A DNA stretch of 25,009 nucleotides from Bacillota bacterium. Lineage in GTDB: Bacteria; Bacillota; Clostridia; Acetivibrionales; JAKOSZ01. The stretch is from assembly GCA_029776555.1 (NCBI GenBank), contig JAKOSZ010000140.1, forward strand, positions 1 through 25,009. The letters are read 5' to 3'. A program made the position numbers and the translations under genes. The notes below the pieces were generated by a model that saw nothing but the letters and a program-made list of their open reading frames with translations, made no database searches and had not been told where the DNA came from. The stretch's first letter is position 1. The number at the start of each line of letters is the position of its first letter. Of the stretch, positions 2,851 to 25,009 are shown one piece after another.

Positions 2851-4116
2851 ATGATGCAAATGTTTGATTTTTGGGGGATTTTAGACAGTATTTTCGACCT
2901 GGCAAGTATTCTTTTTCAGGCGCTCCTTTGGATCATCTTTGTATATTATCTGGTTATCTCCGCCTTTGGCTGGGTGAAACGGAAAGAGGAACCTGCCGAA
3001 AATTTTCCCGTTAAGTATAAATTTGCGGCTGTCATATCCGCCCACAATGAAGAAAAGGTCATCGGGGGAATTATAAGGAGCTTAAAAGCCCAGAAGTATC
3101 CCAAAGACATGTATGACATATACGTGGTTGCCGACAACTGCACCGACAACACGGCCAAAGTTGCCGCGGAAAACGGGGCTATTGTTTTTGAACGCTTTGA
3201 TAACACCAGGAGGGGGAAAGGATACTCCCTTGAATGGATGTTCAACAGGCTGTTCCAGCTGGACAGGAAATATGACGCTGTTTGCATATTTGACGCCGAC
3301 AACCTGGTTTCTTCCAGGTTCCTGCTGGAGATGAACAAGCAGCTTTCCAAGGGCCACAAGGTAATCCAGGGCTACCTGGACAGTAAAAACCCTTATGACA
3401 CCTGGATTTCGGGCAACTACTCCATTGCCTACTGGATCAGCAACAGGCTTTTTCAGCTCCCCAGGTATTACCTTGGCTTGAACTGCGCCCTGGGAGGCAC
3501 CGGCTTCACCATAGCCACCGACGTGTTAAAAGAAATCGGCTGGGGGGCTACCAGCCTCACGGAGGACCTGGAGTTTTCCTTAAAACTGGTGCTGAAGGGC
3601 ATGCGGGTGTCCTGGTCCCACGAAGCCGTCGTATATGACGAAAAGCCCTTGGGGTTAAAGCAGTCCTGGAGACAGCGCAAGCGCTGGATGCAGGGCCATT
3701 CCGACTGCGCCACCAGGTACCTTAAAAAACTTCTGAAGAAGGCACTGAAAGACAGGGATATGGTGGCACTGGACGCCTCCATTTATTTAATACAGCCTTT
3801 CATCATTGTGGTGAATGGAATAGCCCTGGTCATAGGGATGGGAATTTTTTTCGCCAACCTTGCCTTAAATCTTTCCACGCTGCTTTTTGTGCTGCTTATA
3901 GGGGTTGTTACCTACATAACCGTAATATTCGTTATCATTGAAGGCAAACTGACACCTAAGATATTCCTGTATTTTCTCACCTACCCTGTGTACAGCCTGA
4001 CCTGGGTACCCATAATAATAGACGGATTTCTAAACAGGCATAAAAAGGAATGGGTACACACCCTTCATACCAGAGCCCTTGACATTGACGACATCGAATC
4101 CCTGGACAAGATATAA
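2851..4116 (+). CDS. Membrane-bound processive-type GT2 glycosyltransferase (paralog 1)
   Basis: AHNEE, VADNC, FDADN (DxD), TED and QRKRW motifs. N-terminal and C-terminal hydrophobic segments. RBS GAGGAG. Confidence 0.92.
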   Translation: MMQMFDFWGILDSIFDLASILFQALLWIIFVYYLVISAFGWVKRKEEPAENFPVKYKFAAVISAHNEEKVIGGIIRSLKAQKYPKDMYDIYVVADNCTDNTAKVAAENGAIVFERFDNTRRGKGYSLEWMFNRLFQLDRKYDAVCIFDADNLVSSRFLLEMNKQLSKGHKVIQGYLDSKNPYDTWISGNYSIAYWISNRLFQLPRYYLGLNCALGGTGFTIATDVLKEIGWGATSLTEDLEFSLKLVLKGMRVSWSHEAVVYDEKPLGLKQSWRQRKRWMQGHSDCATRYLKKLLKKALKDRDMVALDASIYLIQPFIIVVNGIALVIGMGIFFANLALNLSTLLFVLLIGVVTYITVIFVIIEGKLTPKIFLYFLTYPVYSLTWVPIIIDGFLNRHKKEWVHTLHTRALDIDDIESLDKI

Positions 4117-4139: not shown

Positions 4140-5396
4140 CTAAGCCTTTTCCAGGTCCCTTATGCTTATTTCCCTTGTGTGGACTGTGTGGTACCAGACC
4201 CGGTTGTTCTTGCTCAAAAAGCCCTGGATGGTTATGGGCAGCCAGGTAATGCAGTAAAAGGGGTATACGATGAAGCCAAGCAGAACTTTTAAGTTAAACT
4301 TCTTTTCGATCATGATTATCCATGGCCCGTAGAAAAGCTGAAAAAGCGCAAACACATACCATATCCCGGCAGGGAACACGTATCTTATGCTGTAGAAGGG
4401 AGACTGGGGATATATTGTCTGGATCCACATCATGATGGTGGTAAGGCCGATGAATATGTATCTGACAGGCTGAAACAGGTATATAGCGCAGTCCAGGGCG
4501 GTGAGGTCGTTCTCCCTGAAGGCCTTTGCAAAGAGCAAACCCAGGTAGCGGCTGGCGCAGTCGGCATGCCCCTGCATCCACCGTTTCCGCTGGAGCCATG
4601 ACTGTTTCAGGGTAAGGGGTTTTTCATCGTATACTACGGCGTTATGGGCCCAGGCTATTTTGATGCCGTTTAAGGCCATCTTCATTGTGAATTCCAGGTC
4701 TTCGGTGAGGCAGGTGGCTCCCCAGCCTGTCTTCTTCAAAGTCTCCAAATCCACGCAGAATCCGGTACCGCAAAGACTGCAGCTTAGGCCAAGATAATAG
4801 CGGGGAAGCTGGAATATCCTGTTGGACAGCCAGAAGGCTATTGAGTAGGAACAGGTTATCCAGGAGTCAAAGGGGTTTTTGCTGTCGATGTAGCCCTGGA
4901 CAACCTTGAATCCCTTTAAAAGCTGCTTGTTCATTTCCAGAAGGAAATTGGATGAGACCAGGTTGTCCGCGTCGAAGACAGCCACCGCGTCATACTTGTT
5001 TCCCATGGCGAAGATTTTCTCAAACATCCACTCCAGGGCGTAACCCTTACCCCTTTCGCTGTCGTTGAACCTCTTATATACGATGGCCCCGTGCCGGGCA
5101 GCCACCTCCGCCGTCCTGTCGCTGCAGTTATCCGCCACCACATAGATGTCGTAGAGTTCCCGGGGATAACTCTGCCTTAAGAGGCTGTCCACAATGTGGC
5201 CTATGACGCACTCTTCGTTGTGAGCCGCTATAACCAGGGCAAACCTCTTGACCGGGGGATAAAGGCGAGGGTCCTCCTCCTTCCTTTTTTTCAAGCCCCA
5301 GACGGATACTATGAAAAAGTAACAGCTGGTTATGAATATCAGGACCTGTATGACTTGGGTGACAAGAAATACGGCGCTGTTCAAACAAAAAACCAT
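4140..5396 (-). CDS. Membrane-bound processive-type GT2 glycosyltransferase (paralog 2)
   Basis: Same motif set (AHNEE, VADNC, FDADN, TED, QRKRW) and a C-terminal WYHTVH. RBS GGAGGAA on the minus strand at 5401-5407. Confidence 0.92.
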   Translation of the reverse strand: MVFCLNSAVFLVTQVIQVLIFITSCYFFIVSVWGLKKRKEEDPRLYPPVKRFALVIAAHNEECVIGHIVDSLLRQSYPRELYDIYVVADNCSDRTAEVAARHGAIVYKRFNDSERGKGYALEWMFEKIFAMGNKYDAVAVFDADNLVSSNFLLEMNKQLLKGFKVVQGYIDSKNPFDSWITCSYSIAFWLSNRIFQLPRYYLGLSCSLCGTGFCVDLETLKKTGWGATCLTEDLEFTMKMALNGIKIAWAHNAVVYDEKPLTLKQSWLQRKRWMQGHADCASRYLGLLFAKAFRENDLTALDCAIYLFQPVRYIFIGLTTIMMWIQTIYPQSPFYSIRYVFPAGIWYVFALFQLFYGPWIIMIEKKFNLKVLLGFIVYPFYCITWLPITIQGFLSKNNRVWYHTVHTREISIRDLEKA

Positions 5397-5560
5397 ATCA
5401 TTCCTCCGGGCTTTACCGTCTTATGTTGATTAATTTCAAAGAAGGAGAGTATTCCCCTCAGGAACCGACGGTGCAGTTTATAATTATTTTGCGTCGTAAG
5501 AGAAAAAATATTAAAAGATGTATTGAAAATAGTAAGCCTGGAAAGAAAAGGAGATTCAAA

Positions 5561-7492
5561 ATGCCAAAACCTTATATTAACAACGCAGTGGTGGGCAATT
5601 CCTCCATGCTGGCCTGTATAGACGAAAAGGGCCAGCTGATCAGGCTTTTTTGGCCTGGTATTGACCGCTTTCAACAGGTCAGCAGCTTTCTCATTGGAAT
5701 CAGTCAAGCAAACGGCCATGGGGGCACAAAATGGCTTAACGGGGATGGATTTGGGCATAGCCAGCATTATCTGCCGGACACCAACGTCCTGGAGACGGTT
5801 TGCACTGAAGTTGAAGGCCATCTTCAAATACAGCAGGCCGACTTTGTGCTTCCGGACAGGGATGTTCTGGTAAGGCTGATTGACATAAGAAACACGGGGC
5901 CGGCAGAGGCGGATTTGGACCTGGTCCTCTATTCTTCTTTTAGCAGTGCCATCCATGACCCTGCCGGCTCAATGTTCGATTTTGACACGGATGCCCTTGT
6001 TCACTACAGGCACGGCTGTTATATGGCCGTTTATGCCAACGTCTTCTCTATGGGTTTCCAGCTGGGGAGCAGCGCCTGTTATGCCGCCGGGAAAAATGAG
6101 TTTCACGGCTATGACGCCATTGGGATGACCCCGGAGGCGGCCGTTTCCTGGAGGCTTGGCAGGATTCAGGCCGGGGAGAAAAAAAGATTCCTGCTGGGGC
6201 TTTGTTTCTCGGACAGCCTGGCAGGCCTGAGAGAAAGGGTAAGGGAGTTAAGGGCCCTGGATGGGGATGAGCTTTTGCAAAAAACCGTTGATTACTGGAG
6301 AAGGTTTCTCGCTTCAGCCAGACAGGTCACCACGGGGGATGTCCGCCTTGACAGCCTCTACAAGAGGTCTCTGCTGCTTTTAAGGCTCATGTGGGATAAA
6401 AGGCACGGCGGCATTATCGCCGCGCCGGAAGTGGACGAGGAGTTTAGCAGGTGTGGAAGGTACGCCTACTGCTGGGGCAGGGATGCGGCCTTTATAACCG
6501 AAGCCCTGGACAGGAGCGGATTGACCCATATGGTGGACAGTTTCTACGGCTGGGCTGTAAAAGCCCAGGACGAAAGCGGCCTGTGGCACCAGAGGTATTA
6601 TGCGGACGGAAACCTGGCGCCGTCCTGGGGCCTCCAGCCGGATGAAATCGGGACCCTGGTATGGGGGATGATGAGGCACTACCAGGCAAACAAAGACCGC
6701 GGCTTTCTTGCCGGGGTATGGGAGAGCGCCAGGAAGGCCGTGGAGTTCCTGCTGGGCTATACTGACCCGGAAACAGGCCTCCCGCTGCCAGGCTATGACC
6801 TATGGGAAGAGAGCTTCGGGGAGCACACCTACTCGACGGCTGCGGTTTGCGCCGGTATCAGGGCGGGAGCTGAGATGGCGAGACAGCTTGTCAAAGCGGA
6901 AGGGCTTGCGGAATACTGGGAGAAGCGCTATGAGGAAATGAGGACTGCCATGGAGAAAAAGCTGTGGAGCGAAAAGCAGGGGCGCTTTTTAAGGAGTGTA
7001 AGGGTAAAGCTGAATCCCTGGGGGGAGGAAACGGCCGGTGAGGATGTAAGAATAACGGTAAAGCGGAGAAGCTTTGTACGGAGGCTCTTTCCCGAGGATG
7101 CCAGGATAGACGCAAGCCTGATAGGAGTCAGTGTGCCGTTCGAACTTTTCCCTCCTGACGACCCCAGGGTTATAAGTACCGTTGAAGCCATAGAAAGGTC
7201 ACTGACCTACCCCGGCGGCGGTATCGGGCGGTATGAAGGCGACAGCTACATCGGCGGGAATCCCTGGCTTGTAACTACCCTGTGGCTGGCCTTGTATCAC
7301 ATACGCGCGAAAAACTTTGCCAGGGCCCGGATGTGTCTGGACTGGGCGGTGAGAGGACGGACAGGGCTTGATCTCCTCCCGGAACAGGTGGATAAAAATA
7401 CAGGGAAGCCGGTCTGGGTGATACCTTTGACATGGTCCCACGCTATGTATATCCTGGTTCTTCTGGAGCTTCTGGAAGCCGGAGAGCTTTAG
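5561..7492 (+). CDS. Glycoside hydrolase family 15 (glucoamylase/trehalase-like)
   Basis: YAYCWGRD, YDLWEE (general acid region), LPEQ (general base region) and PLTWSHA motifs. Likely start is ATG 5561 after AAGGAG; the ORF-track start at 5423 is an upstream extension. Confidence 0.9.
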   Translation: MPKPYINNAVVGNSSMLACIDEKGQLIRLFWPGIDRFQQVSSFLIGISQANGHGGTKWLNGDGFGHSQHYLPDTNVLETVCTEVEGHLQIQQADFVLPDRDVLVRLIDIRNTGPAEADLDLVLYSSFSSAIHDPAGSMFDFDTDALVHYRHGCYMAVYANVFSMGFQLGSSACYAAGKNEFHGYDAIGMTPEAAVSWRLGRIQAGEKKRFLLGLCFSDSLAGLRERVRELRALDGDELLQKTVDYWRRFLASARQVTTGDVRLDSLYKRSLLLLRLMWDKRHGGIIAAPEVDEEFSRCGRYAYCWGRDAAFITEALDRSGLTHMVDSFYGWAVKAQDESGLWHQRYYADGNLAPSWGLQPDEIGTLVWGMMRHYQANKDRGFLAGVWESARKAVEFLLGYTDPETGLPLPGYDLWEESFGEHTYSTAAVCAGIRAGAEMARQLVKAEGLAEYWEKRYEEMRTAMEKKLWSEKQGRFLRSVRVKLNPWGEETAGEDVRITVKRRSFVRRLFPEDARIDASLIGVSVPFELFPPDDPRVISTVEAIERSLTYPGGGIGRYEGDSYIGGNPWLVTTLWLALYHIRAKNFARARMCLDWAVRGRTGLDLLPEQVDKNTGKPVWVIPLTWSHAMYILVLLELLEAGEL

Positions 7493-18259: not shown

Positions 18260-18288
18260 TTGACAGTGAATTTGGGGTATGCTATACT
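18260..18288 (+). promoter_or_regulatory. Strong sigma-A promoter of the PTS cluster
   Basis: TTGACA (18260-18265), 17 nt spacer, TG-n extension, TATACT (18283-18288). Confidence 0.82.
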
Positions 18289-18294
18289 TTATAC

Positions 18295-18310
18295 ATCATA
18301 ACGTTATAAT
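18295..18310. promoter_or_regulatory. Candidate GntR-family operator overlapping the transcription start
   Basis: ATCATAACGTTATAAT, with a perfect 10-bp palindromic core ATAACGTTAT (18298-18307) immediately downstream of the -10 box. A GntR gene lies in the same cluster. Confidence 0.5.
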
Positions 18311-18554
18311 ATTTAAGATTATCTTTTGATGGGGGGATGCAGGGAGAAAGTTTCATGATATGTCAATCAAGATCGCAATAGTCAAAGACGTCGCACCGTT
18401 TCCCATGATGTAAAAGCTAAGTTAAACCAGGAATGAGACAAAGCGACTATAACAGAAGTCTATATGCAGGTCTTTGTCTATGATTATCAGGGGTCCACAT
18501 CTCAGGGGAAAGGGAGGGTCATGTGTCTATACGAAAGGAGGGTTGCGGGATTTT

Positions 18555-18875
18555 ATGAAAAAGATTATTGGAGTGGTAGCCTGCCCGGCCGGTATTGCAC
18601 ACACTTACATGGCGGCTGAAATGCTTGAAAAGGTCGGGAAGAAATTGGGTTATGCAGTAAAGATTGAAACCAATGGCGCTTCAGGAGTGGAAAACAGGCT
18701 TACTAAAAAAGATATTGAAGAAGCAGATGTTGTTATAGTTGCTGCGGATACTGCTGTCGAAATGGAAAGGTTTCGAGGTAAGCCCATGATAGAGGCATCT
18801 GTAGGAGACGCAATAAAGAAGGCTGAAAAAATATTCGCCAGGATACAAAACGGTGAGCTTAAGATTTATGGTTAG
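18555..18875 (+). CDS. PTS fructose/mannose (Fru family) EIIB component
   Basis: VVACPAGIAHTYMAAE (phosphorylated Cys) and KIETNGASG motifs. ATG 18555. Confidence 0.93.
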   Translation: MKKIIGVVACPAGIAHTYMAAEMLEKVGKKLGYAVKIETNGASGVENRLTKKDIEEADVVIVAADTAVEMERFRGKPMIEASVGDAIKKAEKIFARIQNGELKIYG

Positions 18876-19006
18876 GTTGGTGACCGCAGACCGGATATTC
18901 CAGCGCATGCAGCAAGACTTTCAGGAGAAATTACTGTACTTCAGGTTAATCTATAAACTTTGGCGGTTTTCGGAAAGATTTTCTATCATATGTGGGGGTG
19001 AAAAAA

Positions 19007-20059
19007 TTGAGTAGGAAAATTGGTTTATACAAGCATGTCATGACCGGTGTATCGTATTTTTTACCTGTTGTAGTAGCTGGTGGAATGCTGATTGCATTTG
19101 CTTTCCTGTTTGATGCCCCAAACGCAGGTACGGCAACATACGGTTCAACTAATGCGGTATCAGCCTGGCTGCTGAAGATCGGAACAAACGCCTTTTCCTT
19201 TATGCTTCCTGTTCTAACTGCTTATCTCGCGTACTCCATTGCCGATAGGGCGGCTTTGGCCCCTGGCTTTGTTGTTGGTCTGCTTGCAAAGGATGGGGGT
19301 TCCGGATTTATAGGCGCTCTAGTCGGCGGGATTTTTGCCGGATATATGATACTCTTTTTAAAGAAGGCCACTTCTAAATTCCCAAGGACTTTTGAAGCAA
19401 CAAAAACACTGATCATCTTTCCCGTGATAGGCGTAATCATTTGCTCACTTTTGATGCTGGTTGTAAATTCAGTATGCGGGCCTATCAATACCGGCTTAAC
19501 AAGTTGGCTTAACAATATTAGCTCGACAAATAAGATCTTATTGGCAATCATATTAGGCGTTATGATCGTGCTGGACCTGGGAGGACCTATCAATAAAACT
19601 GCTTACTTCTTCTCCGTTGCCTCTTTGACGGCTGCGGACGGTTCCGCGGTGGCGTCGCCGATTATGGGGGCTGTTGCTGCGGCAGGTGTGACAATAAGTA
19701 CGGGATGCGCACTTGCAACTACACTATTCCCCAAGAAGTTCAGCCCTGAACTCAGAGAAGCAGGTAAAGCGGCGTATGTCATGGGTTTAAGTTTTATATG
19801 CGAAGGTGCTATCCCATTTGCGATTGCAAAGCCCAAGCAAGTGTATCCCGCTATGATCCTGGGTTCTGTGGTAACATGCGTACTGGCAACTATTTTTAAG
19901 ATAACCATACCCGCACCAATCGGTGGAGTTTTCACAATCCCCCTTGTGAATAACATTCCTCTGTACCTGCTTTCCATTGTCATTGGGATCCTGGTTTCGG
20001 CTTTCACTATAGGATTCCTGATAAAAGAGGATTACAAACCCGAAGAAGAAGAAGATTAA
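19007..20059 (+). CDS. PTS Fru-family EIIC permease
   Basis: KHVMTGVSYFLPVVVAGG, SIADRAALAPG, DLGGPINK and EGAIPF motifs with many TM segments. The start is uncertain (GTG 18992, GTG 18998 or TTG 19007). Confidence 0.93.
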   Translation: MSRKIGLYKHVMTGVSYFLPVVVAGGMLIAFAFLFDAPNAGTATYGSTNAVSAWLLKIGTNAFSFMLPVLTAYLAYSIADRAALAPGFVVGLLAKDGGSGFIGALVGGIFAGYMILFLKKATSKFPRTFEATKTLIIFPVIGVIICSLLMLVVNSVCGPINTGLTSWLNNISSTNKILLAIILGVMIVLDLGGPINKTAYFFSVASLTAADGSAVASPIMGAVAAAGVTISTGCALATTLFPKKFSPELREAGKAAYVMGLSFICEGAIPFAIAKPKQVYPAMILGSVVTCVLATIFKITIPAPIGGVFTIPLVNNIPLYLLSIVIGILVSAFTIGFLIKEDYKPEEEED

Positions 20060-20454
20060 TGCACGCGGCTGGCAAAAAGGAAGTCAGGTTCTATTTGTAG
20101 TGCTATTATGGTTTTGCGGAGCTTACGCAGAAGAAGGGTCTCTTGTTGAAAACCAATTGTTTTCGGGACTTGAAAAGCAACAGATGAAGAAGGTTTTAAT
20201 CCAACGGTATAGGGGTTGAAAATACCAGCTTAGGAAACAACAGACAGTATTTGTATTGGCCCAGGTATTAAACTACAGGAACGGGCAGGATTAACGGTAC
20301 GTAACCTGACAGAATCGGCAAGTCAAAAATTACTTCTATTTGCGTAAGCTCCCATGGTATTATATTACCAGGAAAAGTGACTATATTGTTCTCATTGCGT
20401 GAGTTTTGCGATTTGTGAGCGGCGGACAATAATTACCATGTAAGGAGTGGTAGT

Positions 20455-21219
20455 TTGCTGGACGTAAGTAAAGGTTCAAAACCTCTGTACATGCAGATAA
20501 AAGAATACATCAGCAACTTAATAAAAGAAGGTAAATGGAAACCAGGCGAACTTATACCATCGGAAAAAGAGCTTCAGAATATGTTCAATGTCAGCAGGAT
20601 AACTGTGAGACAGGCCATTAATGAACTGGTCAACGAGGGCGCTTTAGCCAAGAAAAGCGGCGTTGGCACAAGAGTCTTAGACCCGGTTTCCAAGGTGGAG
20701 AAATTCAGCACTATTGTCAAGGGCTTTTCCCATGAAATGCAGGAGATTGGGCAGAACCCCCAGACTTTCTACGCCAAGTTATACGTCAATATTAAACCTG
20801 ACGAAAAACTAAAGGCGATTTTTGGCGAAGAATTAAACAAGGGGAAAAAGCTGTACCGGCTTGACAGGGTGCGAGGCTATGACGGAAAAAAGATCGTCTT
20901 TTTCAAGACATTTTTGTGCACGAACATCGATCTGGAGCAAAAGTTTACAAATAAGGATTTTTCTCTATACAAGGTTTTGAGGGAGTCAGGTTTGATTCTG
21001 TCCCTGCTGGAAGAGAGAATTACAGCAAGAACCGCAGATAAAAGAATATGCAAACACTTGAACCTCTCTTCCGGCGACACCGTCCTGGTCCGGGAGCGGT
21101 TTGCCATTGACCAAAACAATGTGCTTGCCGAATACTCCATAGGTTATTATGTCCCAGAGCTCTATACTTATAAAATCAGGCTTAACCATGACTTTAGCGG
21201 CAATATTGTATTGCCATAG
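20455..21219 (+). CDS. GntR-family (HutC/UTRA) transcriptional regulator
   Basis: PLYMQI...G.LIPSEKEL...FNVSRITVRQAI..L...G.GT winged HTH and a UTRA-type C-terminus. TAAGGAG RBS and TTG start. Confidence 0.92.
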   Translation: MLDVSKGSKPLYMQIKEYISNLIKEGKWKPGELIPSEKELQNMFNVSRITVRQAINELVNEGALAKKSGVGTRVLDPVSKVEKFSTIVKGFSHEMQEIGQNPQTFYAKLYVNIKPDEKLKAIFGEELNKGKKLYRLDRVRGYDGKKIVFFKTFLCTNIDLEQKFTNKDFSLYKVLRESGLILSLLEERITARTADKRICKHLNLSSGDTVLVRERFAIDQNNVLAEYSIGYYVPELYTYKIRLNHDFSGNIVLP

Positions 21220-21298
21220 GTTAAGCTGAAAAAACGGCAAGGCTGGAGATTTCAATAGCAGCGAAGAAATCTACACACCAGGGTTTGGAGGAAAGCAT

Positions 21299-21736
21299 AT
21301 GGAACTCATTGATGAAAGTCTGATAGCATTAGACATAGAACTAAACAGTAAAGACGAGGTTATCAAGTATATATGCGATTTGATGGAAGCTAATGGCAGG
21401 TTGTTGTCCAGGGATGTTTACGTGCATGACGTTTATGAAAGAGAGAAGATATATTCAACGGCGGTGGGGCTTTCTTTTGCCATACCCCATGCCAAGTCCA
21501 GGGGCGTCAAATCTAATTCGTTGGTTTTTATCAGGCTGAAAAACGAAATAGAATGGTCCCAAGATGAAAAAGTGAAGTGCGTTTTTGGCATTGCAGTCCC
21601 TTTTGAAAATGCCGGAAATGAACATCTGGATATTCTGGCAATGCTGGCAAGGAAAATAGTGAACGATGAATTCAGGCAGAGCCTGTTCATGTCAAAATCC
21701 AAGAGGAATTGCCTGGATCTGATCTACGGCAGTTGA
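21299..21736 (+). CDS. PTS Fru/Mtl-family EIIA component
   Basis: EREK.YSTAVG..FAIPHAKS (phospho-His) and HLDILAMLARKI. Confidence 0.92.
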   Translation: MELIDESLIALDIELNSKDEVIKYICDLMEANGRLLSRDVYVHDVYEREKIYSTAVGLSFAIPHAKSRGVKSNSLVFIRLKNEIEWSQDEKVKCVFGIAVPFENAGNEHLDILAMLARKIVNDEFRQSLFMSKSKRNCLDLIYGS

Positions 21737-21765
21737 CTTATCTTTGTTTTTGAAAGGGTGTTAAT

Positions 21766-23667
21766 ATGAGCTTCATGTTTTGGCCAATAGACTATGACGA
21801 TAATACTGCAATCAATTACCCGCATATTCCCGAAAAGACCAAGGAAAAGTTAGTTTTTGGAACGGTAGAATCGGCTAAGGTGATAGCCAAGTCGGTTGTT
21901 CAGTTCATAAATGAAAGAAATAAAGGGTGCGTAATAGCGTTCGACGGTTATGTAAGCGCTCAGTTTGACGTGTTATCCAACCTGTTTCTCCAGGATGTCA
22001 GAAAGCAGGGCTATGACGTACTGTGGTATAAAATGGAAGATATGTATTTGCCCACGGAGAGAATAGACGACATGTTAAAGGAGTATCTGCCGAAAGACAG
22101 GGAGTGTGACCCTGTTAATCTGTTTGGCAAGGTTTATGACGGTTCCTTTGCCGATTTTATAGACTTTGATAAGGCAAAGGCTTTTAAAAAAGCCGCACGT
22201 TCTCTTTCAAGAAACCAGGTCCTCCTTTTGACGGGCTATGGCAGCGCTTTTAATGCTTTTGAGGATCTGCTGGATTTTATAGCTTACATCGACGTTACTC
22301 CAAAGCATGCGGCTGTCAGGGCAAGAAGCGGGCGATTAGTCAACATTGGAGACAGGGCACCGCGGCCTTTTTCGGAAATAATGCGAAGAAACTACTATGT
22401 AGACTTTGAAATAACTCTTGCGTTAAGAAAACACTTGTTGAAAAACGACTTAATAGACTTCTACATCGTGGGCAACTTCGAAAACGATTTTATACTGATG
22501 CCTGGGGAAGCCCTGTCTGATATACTGCTTCGTTTGTCAAAGTACCCCTTCCGCTGTAAACCGGTTTACCTGGAAGGAGTATGGGGTGGAGAGTTTATCC
22601 GCAAAGCGCGAAATCTGCCAAAGGATTTTAAAAACATCGCATGGTCGTATGAAATGATTGCTTTTGAGGTAAGCGTGATTGTGGATATTGACGGTAAACT
22701 TGTTGAATTCCCGTTCTCAACTTTTCTCCAAAAGTACCCTGTTGAATTGATGGGTGAAAAGTGCGCAAAGCACTTTGGGGGATATTTCCCTATCCGCTTT
22801 AATTACGACGATACTTACCACGGGAATGGGAACATGTCCATCCAGGTCCATCCCGATGAGGAGTTTATCATCAGCGAATTTAATGAAAAGGGCAGACAGG
22901 ATGAGGCATACTATGTAATTGCTACCGGACACGGCGCCAGGACATTTATCGGCTTCCGTGAAGATGCTGACCCCGATGAATTTTTAAGGCTTGTAAAACA
23001 GTCTGAAAAGGACAGAAGCACTATTGATTATTTAAAGTACATCAATTATGTTGATTCGGTGCCCGGCTGCCAGGTTATGATACCAAGTGGAACGGTTCAC
23101 GCTTCCGGGCGAAACCAACTGGTCCTGGAATTGGGTTCTTTGACAACGGGGGCATACACCTTTAAAATGTATGACTATATTCGCCAGGACTTGGATGGGA
23201 CCCTCCGTCCCATACACAGCCTGTATGCCGAAAAGGTCCTTAAAAAAGACAGGAGGACAAAGTGGGTAAAGGAGAACCTGGTCATTGAGCCAAGGCTGGT
23301 GCGTGAAGGTGAAGGCTATCGCGAAAGGATTATTGGGAGCACCGACTTAATATACTTCGAGACAAGACAAATAGAGCTTGAGACCGAGATAGAAATGCAC
23401 AATAACGGACAGTTTACGGTGCTGACGCTGGTTGATGGCGAAGAAGTCCTGGTCTACGATAAGTACAATCCTCAGCGTTGTTTCAGACAGAAATTCCTGG
23501 ACATTGTCGTAGTGCCTGCCACAATAAGCGAGTATGTTATTAAAAACCTTGGGTATCAACCTGTGGTTGTTCACAAGACAGCGTTAAAACCTGGGTATGA
23601 TTCGGTTCCTAATAGACTTAGCGGCATGCCATCGAAGGTAAAGGAGGAGTGTTCAAAAAATGATTAA
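21766..23667 (+). CDS. Class I mannose-6-phosphate-isomerase-like cupin with a ~250-aa N-terminal extra domain
   Basis: PVYLEGVWGG, SIQVHP, QDEAYY and GTVHASG carry the Q/H/E/H metal ligands of type I PMI. At 633 aa it is about twice the size of a typical bacterial ManA. Confidence 0.8.
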   Translation: MSFMFWPIDYDDNTAINYPHIPEKTKEKLVFGTVESAKVIAKSVVQFINERNKGCVIAFDGYVSAQFDVLSNLFLQDVRKQGYDVLWYKMEDMYLPTERIDDMLKEYLPKDRECDPVNLFGKVYDGSFADFIDFDKAKAFKKAARSLSRNQVLLLTGYGSAFNAFEDLLDFIAYIDVTPKHAAVRARSGRLVNIGDRAPRPFSEIMRRNYYVDFEITLALRKHLLKNDLIDFYIVGNFENDFILMPGEALSDILLRLSKYPFRCKPVYLEGVWGGEFIRKARNLPKDFKNIAWSYEMIAFEVSVIVDIDGKLVEFPFSTFLQKYPVELMGEKCAKHFGGYFPIRFNYDDTYHGNGNMSIQVHPDEEFIISEFNEKGRQDEAYYVIATGHGARTFIGFREDADPDEFLRLVKQSEKDRSTIDYLKYINYVDSVPGCQVMIPSGTVHASGRNQLVLELGSLTTGAYTFKMYDYIRQDLDGTLRPIHSLYAEKVLKKDRRTKWVKENLVIEPRLVREGEGYRERIIGSTDLIYFETRQIELETEIEMHNNGQFTVLTLVDGEEVLVYDKYNPQRCFRQKFLDIVVVPATISEYVIKNLGYQPVVVHKTALKPGYDSVPNRLSGMPSKVKEECSKND

Positions 23668-24757
23668 AAAAGCAGTGGAGACAATGAATTCAAGGGAGCG
23701 CGTCCGGCGAACCTTTGCATTTGAAAAAACCGACAGAGTGACAATAGGTTACTTAGCCCATGATGTTGCCCATGAACGCGTTTGCAGACTAATGGGGTTA
23801 GATAAAAATGATATGCTGACTTTTTTAAAAGCTCTTGGCGTTGACTATGTGGGAGCAAAACCGCGTTACATTGGAAAGCAGCTTTTTCCTGAGATTCCCA
23901 ATCGCTATGTAAACCCTGAGATAGGAGCTGTAAAGAAGTTTGTGGAAAATGAATACGGCGGATGCTGGGATTACTGTGACTATCCTTTGTTGAATGCCGA
24001 CGATGAGGAAATTTATAACTATCCGGCTCCTGATCCCGATGATTACGACTATGAGGAGTTATCCAGGTATATCGACATGGTGCTGGAGATGGGCTTTTCT
24101 GTGCATGTAGGAGATACCGGCACTGGTGATATCCTCAATACCAACGGTGTGCTCCTGGGATTTGAAAACTCTTTGGTCAACCTCGCCATGGAGCATGAGC
24201 CGACACTCCACATGACTGACAAGCGCTTAAATTCCCAGCTTGGAGTCCTTGAAAGAATTCTTGAGAAGAACAAGGGAAAAATTGATTTCATGTGGTTGGG
24301 GGAAGACCTGGGTACCCAGCGCGGCCCGACTATTGGCATGGATATGTATAAAAGGGTACTTGCGCCCAGACACCAGAAATTCATTGACCTGGCAAAAGCA
24401 TACAATATTCCTACGCAGATACACACATGCGGTTCGTCAAGCTGGGTGTATGAAGAGTTTATTAAAATGGGCATTAAGGGTGTTGACTCGCTTCAACCTG
24501 AAGCAGAAAATATGAGCCCCCGGTATTTGGTAGAACATTTTGGCGGGAGATTGAATTTCAGGGGATGCATTTCTACGGCGGGGCCTCTGGCCTTCGGAAC
24601 CCCTGCAGAGGTGGAGGAAGTCTGCAAGGAAACTTTGGAGATCATGATGGAATGCAGGGGTTATCATTTCGCTCCTACACACCGCATACAAATTAACACG
24701 CCGCCGGAAAATATAATTGCATTGTATCAGGCTGCGCACAAGTACGGTTGCTACTAA
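23660..24757 (+). CDS. URO-D/MtaA-superfamily protein (uroporphyrinogen-decarboxylase-like), not a HemE ortholog
   Basis: MNSRERV..F..EKTDRV N-terminus, GEDLGTQRG, HTCG, GVDSLQPE, FRGCIS and FAPTH.IQ.NTPPENI. It lacks the HemE MRQAGR motif. It overlaps the stop of the PMI-like gene (translational coupling). Confidence 0.85.
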   Translation: MIKKAVETMNSRERVRRTFAFEKTDRVTIGYLAHDVAHERVCRLMGLDKNDMLTFLKALGVDYVGAKPRYIGKQLFPEIPNRYVNPEIGAVKKFVENEYGGCWDYCDYPLLNADDEEIYNYPAPDPDDYDYEELSRYIDMVLEMGFSVHVGDTGTGDILNTNGVLLGFENSLVNLAMEHEPTLHMTDKRLNSQLGVLERILEKNKGKIDFMWLGEDLGTQRGPTIGMDMYKRVLAPRHQKFIDLAKAYNIPTQIHTCGSSSWVYEEFIKMGIKGVDSLQPEAENMSPRYLVEHFGGRLNFRGCISTAGPLAFGTPAEVEEVCKETLEIMMECRGYHFAPTHRIQINTPPENIIALYQAAHKYGCY

Positions 24758-24875
24758 AAAGCGTGTTTAAAAAGGTTCAGGGTTTTACCCGCGGCTGGAA
24801 GTATTTATACGGCTCCCTTTGCCTGATTATGCCTTGAGCCGTTAATGAGCACAGGAAGAGGAGGTATATGCTGAA

Positions 24876-25009
24876 ATGGTGGAGGCCAAAGCGATAATTG
24901 TGAATGAGTCAGGGATTCACGCTCGGCCGGCATCGGAATTGGTGGAATATTTAAAGGGGTTTGAGAATGCAAACGTGTCTTTTATAAAGGACGAAAGGGC
25001 TGTTAATGC
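24876..25009 (+). CDS. HPr-family phosphocarrier protein (3' truncated by window)
   Basis: MVEAKAIIVNESGIHARPASELVEYLKGFENANVSFIKDERAVNA... contains the GIHARPA His15 motif. GAGGAGG RBS upstream. Not in ORF track. Confidence 0.88.
   Translation, partial: MVEAKAIIVNESGIHARPASELVEYLKGFENANVSFIKDERAVN

Follow-up and report, generated by a model that had tools for sequence, protein, structure and literature searches.

What does a gene of the uroporphyrinogen decarboxylase (URO-D) fold do inside a sugar uptake operon? This question is raised by a contig of 25,009 bp (JAKOSZ010000140.1), here called the window and analyzed over its whole length, which belongs to a metagenome-assembled genome (MAG) of a Bacillota bacterium (2.0 Mb in 395 contigs, 88% complete). 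At the end of the window (18555-25009), seven co-directional genes of the + strand encode the IIB and IIC components of a fructose-family phosphotransferase system (PTS), a GntR/UTRA regulator, a IIA component, a 633-aa protein resembling phosphomannose isomerase (PMI), a 365-aa protein of the URO-D fold, and HPr, the gene of which is cut by the contig end. The two putative enzymes are named PMIL and UROD, respectively. Their genes overlap by 8 nt, with the PMIL stop at 23667 and the UROD start at 23660. This arrangement had been described in an earlier annotation made from the DNA alone (the original prediction); all seven genes were found in place on the + strand, and the cluster is a real unit. 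The window DNA is also present in public sludge and anaerobic-digester metagenome runs from several studies.

The explanation tentatively preferred here, as a possibility that stops somewhat short of being probable, is that of a horizontally mobile PTS operon, controlled by GntR, for a hexose with a substituent, probably a methyl group, in which UROD would be a zinc- and corrinoid-dependent demethylase and PMIL an isomerase. The fructose-family PTS (IIA, IIB, IIC, and HPr) would import and phosphorylate the sugar, with Enzyme I and a kinase of the 1-phosphofructokinase (1-PFK) type probably encoded just past the contig end. UROD, acting as a zinc-dependent methyltransferase I (MT I), would pass the methyl group to the single corrinoid protein of the genome (on contig C129), which the activator RACo would keep active, and a methyltransferase II (MT II, on contig C141) would unload the methyl group onto tetrahydrofolate (THF). 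PMIL, as a PMI-type metal-dependent aldose-ketose isomerase, would turn the sugar phosphate into a ketose phosphate for glycolysis. We infer the methyl transfer, its direction, the order of the steps, and the substrate from gene content, gene order, the overlap, the fold and motif assignments, the presence of corrinoid partners, and the phyletic and subclade linkage. The parts are of known kinds, and their combination is new: literature searches found no characterized pathway that joins a PTS, a PMI-like protein, and a URO-D protein, as the original prediction had supposed, and those on URO-D with PTS or sugar, or on the corrinoid demethylation of methyl-sugars, returned nothing relevant.

PMIL and its pairing with UROD

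The C-terminal 360 residues of PMIL constitute a type-I PMI cupin according to sequence, profile, and fold searches. Residues 258-594 match the PMI of Bacillus subtilis (1qwr) in a phmmer search of the PDB (1e-11, or 2e-17 by profile), and the C-terminal part aligns with the same structure in Foldseek with a TMt of 0.84. The PMI metal ligands are intact, as Q360, H362, E380, and H445 are invariant across 33 homologues, and the QVHP motif, the E, and the H align with the metal site of 1qwr. The architecture nevertheless differs from that of PMI, a single domain of about 315-440 aa, both in the length of PMIL and in its extra conserved N-terminal domain. PMIL also remains under all the curated PMI cut-offs (TIGR00218 manA, 34 bits vs. 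116; PF20511, 12 vs. 22; PF21621, 13.5 vs. 27), and a Pfam search at E<=0.01 gave no match. Conservation is strong over the N-terminal ~258 residues, among which many Arg, Asp, and Gly are invariant. Searches of Pfam and the PDB gave no sequence match for this domain, and the language-model leads, to uridine-kinase or PRK-like P-loop folds, are weak (score 0.79); a canonical Walker A motif is not visible in the translation, and the invariant residues G61, Y62, and A65 stand at the expected place.

PMIL belongs to a large family, with at least 3,376 matches across Bacillota, Bacteroidota, and Actinomycetota, consisting of proteins of ~620 aa. In Bacteroidota (ESM Atlas clusters), members are fused to ROK sugar kinases in proteins of ~900 aa, in line with activity on a sugar that has just been phosphorylated. 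The usual operon of the family runs RpiR, EIIBC of a glucose-family PTS, PMIL, a cupin-type glucose-6-phosphate isomerase (GPI), and a short PMI, with or without genes for a MupG-like 6-phospho-glycosidase, a MurQ-like etherase, and EIIA-Glc. It was encountered in Tepidanaerobacter, Enterocloster, Olsenella, and metagenomes (L004, L055, L056, L078, L079). PMIL is there 50-63% identical to that of the window and again lies directly after the PTS permease gene. In contrast to the window, this operon relies on a different PTS family and a different regulator, adds further isomerases and a 6-phospho-glycosidase-like gene, and lacks a URO-D gene. A literature search (MupG/PMI) found no paper describing it, and it appears to be uncharacterized; the succession of three cupin isomerases suggests an undescribed PTS sugar pathway. 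The PMILs tied to a fructose-family PTS (window, G433, and L115) form a clade with 100/100 support, nested among those tied to a glucose-family PTS.

This context also bears on the activity of PMIL. The reading of PMIL as a plain mannose-6-phosphate isomerase is doubtful, and was rejected because a normal short PMI of ~310 aa, along with the cupin GPI, is encoded beside PMIL in its usual operon. PMIL probably isomerizes a different PTS-made sugar phosphate.

The pairing of PMIL with UROD recurs outside the window. In an Oscillospiraceae MAG (G433), the genes, with 52-78% identity, follow another order (GntR-IIA-IIB-IIC-PMIL-UROD), and PMIL and UROD are kept together. A third lineage (L113) shows the C-terminus of PMIL, then UROD, overlapping by 14 nt, and then HPr. 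The URODs of the window, G433, and P0132 form a subclade with 100/99 support, the three members of which all lie directly 3' of a PMIL gene, at spacings of an 8-nt overlap, an 18-nt gap, and a 14-nt overlap, respectively. The co-conservation of UROD with PMIL, on which the original prediction depended, holds in 3/3 members of this subclade. It fails outside it, as neither PMIL nor PTS genes are present at some 45 loci with a UROD ortholog in genomes and metagenomes. None of the sampled genomes has both a PMIL ortholog and a UROD ortholog, and no further PMIL-UROD locus was present among 21 genome and 28 metagenome loci. Neither did a conserved neighbour of UROD orthologs emerge, their contexts varying widely; most often, they lie near further URO-D paralogs or near genes for AraC regulators, rhodanese, GNAT, or xylose-isomerase-like TIM barrels. 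The link between PMIL and UROD is, overall, broadly weak and, in a small subclade, locally strong.

These data bear on a rival explanation, which we regard as improbable, namely that of an ordinary mannose- or fructose-type PTS operon for which the PTS, PMIL, and a downstream 1-PFK-type kinase would suffice, UROD being a passenger methyltransferase for an unrelated methyl donor. The sister cluster L115 carries the core IIB-IIC-GntR-IIA-PMIL in the order of the window, and the 160 nt that come next hold no UROD; the PTS and PMIL may thus function in its absence, as a passenger would imply. Such a role would also suit the many unrelated contexts of UROD orthologs elsewhere, the ptsI and 1-PFK-type kinase genes on contig C315, which may follow HPr, and the fact that the PTS of the window is the only one found in the MAG. 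A passenger gene does not, however, readily account for a UROD that, in three lineages with 30-35% protein divergence and differing gene order, either overlaps PMIL or is no more than 18 nt away from it, nor for PTS-linked URODs that form their own clade. The presence of PMIL elsewhere beside a normal PMI and a cupin GPI likewise argues against an operon for simple mannose-6-phosphate isomerization.

UROD and its putative corrinoid partners

The AlphaFold2 model of UROD (pLDDT 94.8) has the TIM-barrel fold of URO-D. In Foldseek, it is about equidistant from MtaA, the methylcobamide:coenzyme M methyltransferase (4ay7, TM 0.67/0.71), and from human and bacterial HemE/UROD (TM 0.62-0.68), which gives an overall range of TM 0.62-0.71 with 12-16% identity to any solved relative. 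A profile of 31 UROD orthologues, searched against the PDB, had MtaA (4ay7) as its sole match, which is the best sequence-detectable solved relative, at 15% identity. The invariant H255-x-C257 aligns with the H-x-C zinc ligands of MtaA, and the third ligand, a Cys in MtaA, corresponds to the invariant H341. A difference from MtaA is that a member of the Clostridia would not be expected to have coenzyme M. A HemE function was considered and rejected, as PF01208 matches residues 225-362 only, no NCBIfam HemE model is matched, and the N-terminal Arg-rich motif of the MRQAGR type is not visible in the translation. The URO-D fold is shared by the bacterial MT I enzymes CdmB, OdmB, VdmB, MtvB, and MtoB, some MT I enzymes hold zinc, and their nearest structural relative is UroD (2026 paper, PMC13222342). 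From these comparisons, UROD is a candidate corrinoid-dependent methyltransferase of the MT I type.

Corrinoid partners, which the original prediction had proposed to look for, were found in the genome. The MAG encodes one stand-alone corrinoid protein (C129:10141-10779), preceded by a PocR-AraC regulator, fragments of the activator RACo on C273 and C32, and a stand-alone methyl-THF:corrinoid methyltransferase of the MT II type on C141 (NF005719, 330 bits vs. a cut-off of 259). In the known systems OdmABCD and Vdm (Acetobacterium dehalogenans), MtvABC, MtoABCD, and CdmBCA, a URO-D-fold MT I works with a corrinoid protein of ~210 aa, an activator of the RACo type, and an MT II that binds a pterin (PMC13222342), and all four kinds of components are encoded in the MAG. 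Unlike in the window, the known MT I genes are usually beside their own corrinoid protein, whereas UROD sits in a PTS operon with the corrinoid protein elsewhere. The known MT I substrates are aryl methyl ethers, methanol, and methyl halides, not sugars. A UROD ortholog with 65% identity (L053/L054) lies 2.7 kb from PocR, corrinoid protein, and RACo genes, and the corrinoid protein of that locus is 69% identical to that of the MAG.

The distribution of these genes was followed in a class sample of 399 genomes, in which a corrinoid protein ortholog was called at E<=1e-75. UROD orthologs occur in 16 genomes of 9 families, and the corrinoid protein ortholog is present in all of them (16/16), compared with about 95/399 overall. 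G433 also holds it, and genomes with a PMIL ortholog are mostly without a corrinoid protein of the C129 type. Across the class sample, the presence of the URO-D family and that of the corrinoid protein are strongly linked (81/40/14/264, hand count). The original prediction had assigned UROD an 'unmasking' role after uptake, by demethylation, decarboxylation, or another cleavage. Demethylation is the best fit of those listed, in view of the alignment with the MtaA zinc ligands, the corrinoid partners, and the 16/16 co-occurrence, and decarboxylation found no support.

The MAG has about 15 matches to the URO-D family. Other paralogs adjoin genes for sulfatases, hexokinase, GH38, GH42, Zn-ADH, GFO/IDH/MocA, and xylose-isomerase-like TIM-barrel proteins, which points to carbohydrate rather than aromatic substrates. 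On a bolder proposition, which we think somewhat unlikely, UROD would be the first demethylase of sugars or sugar phosphates to depend on a corrinoid. Through it, a methylated hexose or methyl glycoside taken up by the PTS would be connected to B12/folate one-carbon metabolism, and the large URO-D expansions of anaerobic glycan degraders would be a family of methyl-sugar demethylases sharing one hub corrinoid protein. As to the size of such expansions, some sampled genomes have 30-68 URO-D candidates at first look, and those of family f45 (e.g., G041, G215, G188, and G161, of 2.2-2.8 Mb) have 40-68 each, a very large expansion; these are counts of candidates, five of which were scored per genome, and the true copy numbers may differ.

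Several observations weigh against a corrinoid-dependent sugar demethylase. Chemically, an unactivated sugar alkoxide is a poor leaving group. The literature searches found no paper on a corrinoid-dependent sugar demethylase. The identity of UROD to solved relatives is low, His replaces Cys as the putative third metal ligand, and the scores are far under the curated cut-offs of the MtaA family (PRK06252, 40 bits vs. 244; TIGR01463, 33 vs. 235). No corrinoid protein lies in or beside the cluster in the window, G433, or L113, and none is adjacent at more than 40 UROD ortholog loci, with the sole exception of L053/L054 at its distance of 2.7 kb. A single corrinoid protein was found for the 15 URO-D paralogs of the MAG, and the co-occurrence of UROD with the corrinoid protein is confounded by relatedness, as it involves 16 genomes of 9 families. 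Methylenetetrahydrofolate reductase (MTHFR) and the corrinoid protein of CO-dehydrogenase/acetyl-CoA synthase were not found in the 88%-complete MAG, which leaves no evident outlet for the methyl-THF. The cluster L115, with its PMIL and no UROD behind it, belongs to the same side of the balance.

Some of these observations would suit a UROD that dispenses with corrinoid altogether. It could be a metal enzyme acting on the PTS product, for instance as a lyase, as an 'unmasking' enzyme resembling a hydrolase or a decarboxylase, or as a direct alkyl transferase in the manner of MetE, an alternative to which we give little credence. The absence of an adjacent corrinoid protein from every PTS-linked cluster, the ratio of 15 paralogs to one corrinoid protein, and a putative H/C/H ligand set that differs from the H/C/C of MtaA would all be expected, and HemE, which has no cofactor, and MetE, a cobalamin-independent zinc enzyme, share the fold. 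Corrinoid independence is, on the other hand, difficult to reconcile with the finding of UROD orthologs solely in genomes that also carry the corrinoid protein (16/16), with the ortholog beside PocR, corrinoid protein, and RACo, and with a URO-D family presence that tracks the corrinoid protein over the class sample; UROD also lacks the HemE-type signature. The weakest alternative, in which UROD would work in the MtaA direction and move the methyl group carried by the corrinoid protein to a thiol or hydroxyl acceptor (a sugar or other metabolite), so that the operon would make or modify a methylated compound, is highly improbable: sequence searches did lead to no solved relative other than MtaA, a methyl-corrinoid:thiol methyltransferase with zinc ligands aligning with H255, C257, and H341, but PTS import, a regulator of the GntR/UTRA repressor type, and an isomerase make up a catabolic context, neither MTHFR nor another source of methyl-THF was found in the MAG, and the characterized bacterial URO-D-fold enzymes are mostly MT I demethylases (PMC13222342).

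Organization of the locus and related systems

The features of the cluster and the contigs of the MAG with URO-D paralogs are collected in Table 1. A strong promoter-like site precedes the first gene, and the imperfect palindrome just 3' of its -10 hexamer is a candidate GntR operator. The phospho-acceptor residues can be read in the translations of IIB (Cys in VACPAGIAHT), IIA (His in FAIPHAK), and HPr (His in GIHARPAS). The IIA, IIB, and IIC proteins are each a partial match to the MngA model, with scores far below its cut-off. A scan of the intergenic stretches found no credible terminator between cluster genes, and an Rfam scan of the window found no family (riboswitch, leader) at threshold. 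The gap between IIC and GntR is long, 395 nt (20060-20454), compared with ~40 nt at the matching place in the sister cluster L115; an open reading frame, a repeat, and an RNA family were looked for in this gap and none was found, and it holds a weak promoter-like site at 20406-20433. The GC content of the cluster is 0.41-0.47, vs. 0.49-0.58 over the rest of the contig.

Table 1. Features of the PTS cluster in the window, and contigs of the MAG with URO-D paralogs.
Feature	Position	Strand	Evidence or remark
Promoter-like site, TTGACA-17-TATACT with TG	18260..18288	+	11/12 consensus matches; consensus match only
Imperfect palindrome just 3' of the -10 hexamer	18289..18316		15-nt arms, 80% complementary
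PTS IIB, fructose family	18555..18875	+	TIGR00829, 112 bits vs. cut-off 77
PTS IIC, fructose family	18992..20059	+	TIGR01427, 319 bits vs. cut-off 158
GntR/HutC-type regulator with UTRA effector domain	20455..21219	+	PF00392, 1.4e-19; PF07702, 2.4e-19
PTS IIA, fructose/mannitol type	21299..21736	+	PF00359, 2e-36; TIGR00848, 114 bits vs. cut-off 104
PMIL, two-domain, 633 aa	21766..23667	+	Conserved ~258-aa N-terminal part and type-I PMI cupin C-terminal part
UROD, URO-D/MtaA fold, 365 aa	23660..24757	+	PF01208, 46 bits, residues 225-362 only
HPr N-terminus, first 44 codons, cut by contig end	24876..25009	+	PF00381, 34 bits vs. 23, fragment
URO-D paralogs of the MAG (G000)	C326, C107, C289, C146, C209, C34, C51
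URO-D paralogs of the MAG (G000), remaining contigs	C31, C278, C178, C372, C124, C135, C391

The operon may continue beyond the window. The ptsI gene (Enzyme I) was found on another contig of 2.8 kb, C315 (L070), where its N-terminus is cut by the contig end. Directly after it comes the gene of a 1-PFK/LacC-type PfkB kinase (C315 4-900, - strand), which scores 306 bits with TIGR03168 and 289 bits with TIGR03828, the 1-phosphofructokinase equivalog, just below the cut-off of 292. These two genes may be the missing downstream end of the operon, past HPr. The absence of a 1-phosphofructokinase, which the original prediction had noted for the window, consequently holds only up to the contig end; its suggestion to look downstream for ptsI led to a gene that is present in the MAG and may continue the window. 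Three independent assemblies of the species (window, L083, and L084) all end within the HPr coding sequence (codon 24 or 44), which suggests a repeat or strain-variable point there. Contigs from two public runs bridge this break, an 11.8-kb contig of run X1 reaching 4.3 kb past the window end and one of run X4 1.8 kb past it; an exact-match scan of metagenome contigs with the last 35 nt of the window gave no match.

Elsewhere in the window, a GH15-family gene (689 aa, 5423-7492) lies 11 kb upstream of the cluster, behind housekeeping genes, and adjoins two divergently placed GT2 glycosyltransferase genes (2851-4116, + strand, and 4140-5396, - strand). The window is, therefore, not devoid of glycosidases, as had been stated, although this gene is not part of the PTS cluster and is unrelated to it.

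Two characterized systems come close to the cluster. In B. subtilis, ManR/ManP/ManA consists of a fructose-family PTS permease and a type-I PMI-fold isomerase that leads the hexose-6-phosphate to glycolysis, and the window pairs a fructose-family PTS with an isomerase of the same fold. Its isomerase differs from ManA, however, in being 633 aa long, with an extra N-terminal domain and scores below the PMI cut-offs; its regulator is of the GntR/UTRA type, unlike the PRD activator ManR; and its isomerase gene is translationally coupled to a URO-D-fold gene, which the mannose system does not have. In Escherichia coli, MngR/MngA/MngB serves the use of mannosylglycerate, and the unmasking enzyme is the GH38 alpha-mannosidase. 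The window shares with it the combination of a GntR/UTRA regulator and a fructose-family PTS, together with a proposed enzyme that would remove a substituent after uptake. The unmasking slot is held here by a URO-D/MtaA-fold protein instead of a GH38 enzyme.

Possible meaning for anaerobic glycan degradation

The glycans of plants, algae, and microbes commonly contain O-methylated sugars and methyl glycosides, from which aerobes strip the methyl groups by means of P450 enzymes. No anaerobic route for sugar demethylation is described in the literature searched. Should one of the rival explanations hold, the locus would be an ordinary PTS operon with a passenger gene, of modest interest. The locus offers a testable lead for two large unassigned families, the ~620-aa PMI-like proteins and the sugar-linked URO-D paralogs of Clostridia. 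The cluster hints, from genomic evidence only, at an undescribed route for the use of methylated sugars. If this is true, a B12-dependent sugar demethylase in a PTS operon would fill the anaerobic gap, and glycan breakdown in digesters and the gut would be tied to the availability of cobalamin.

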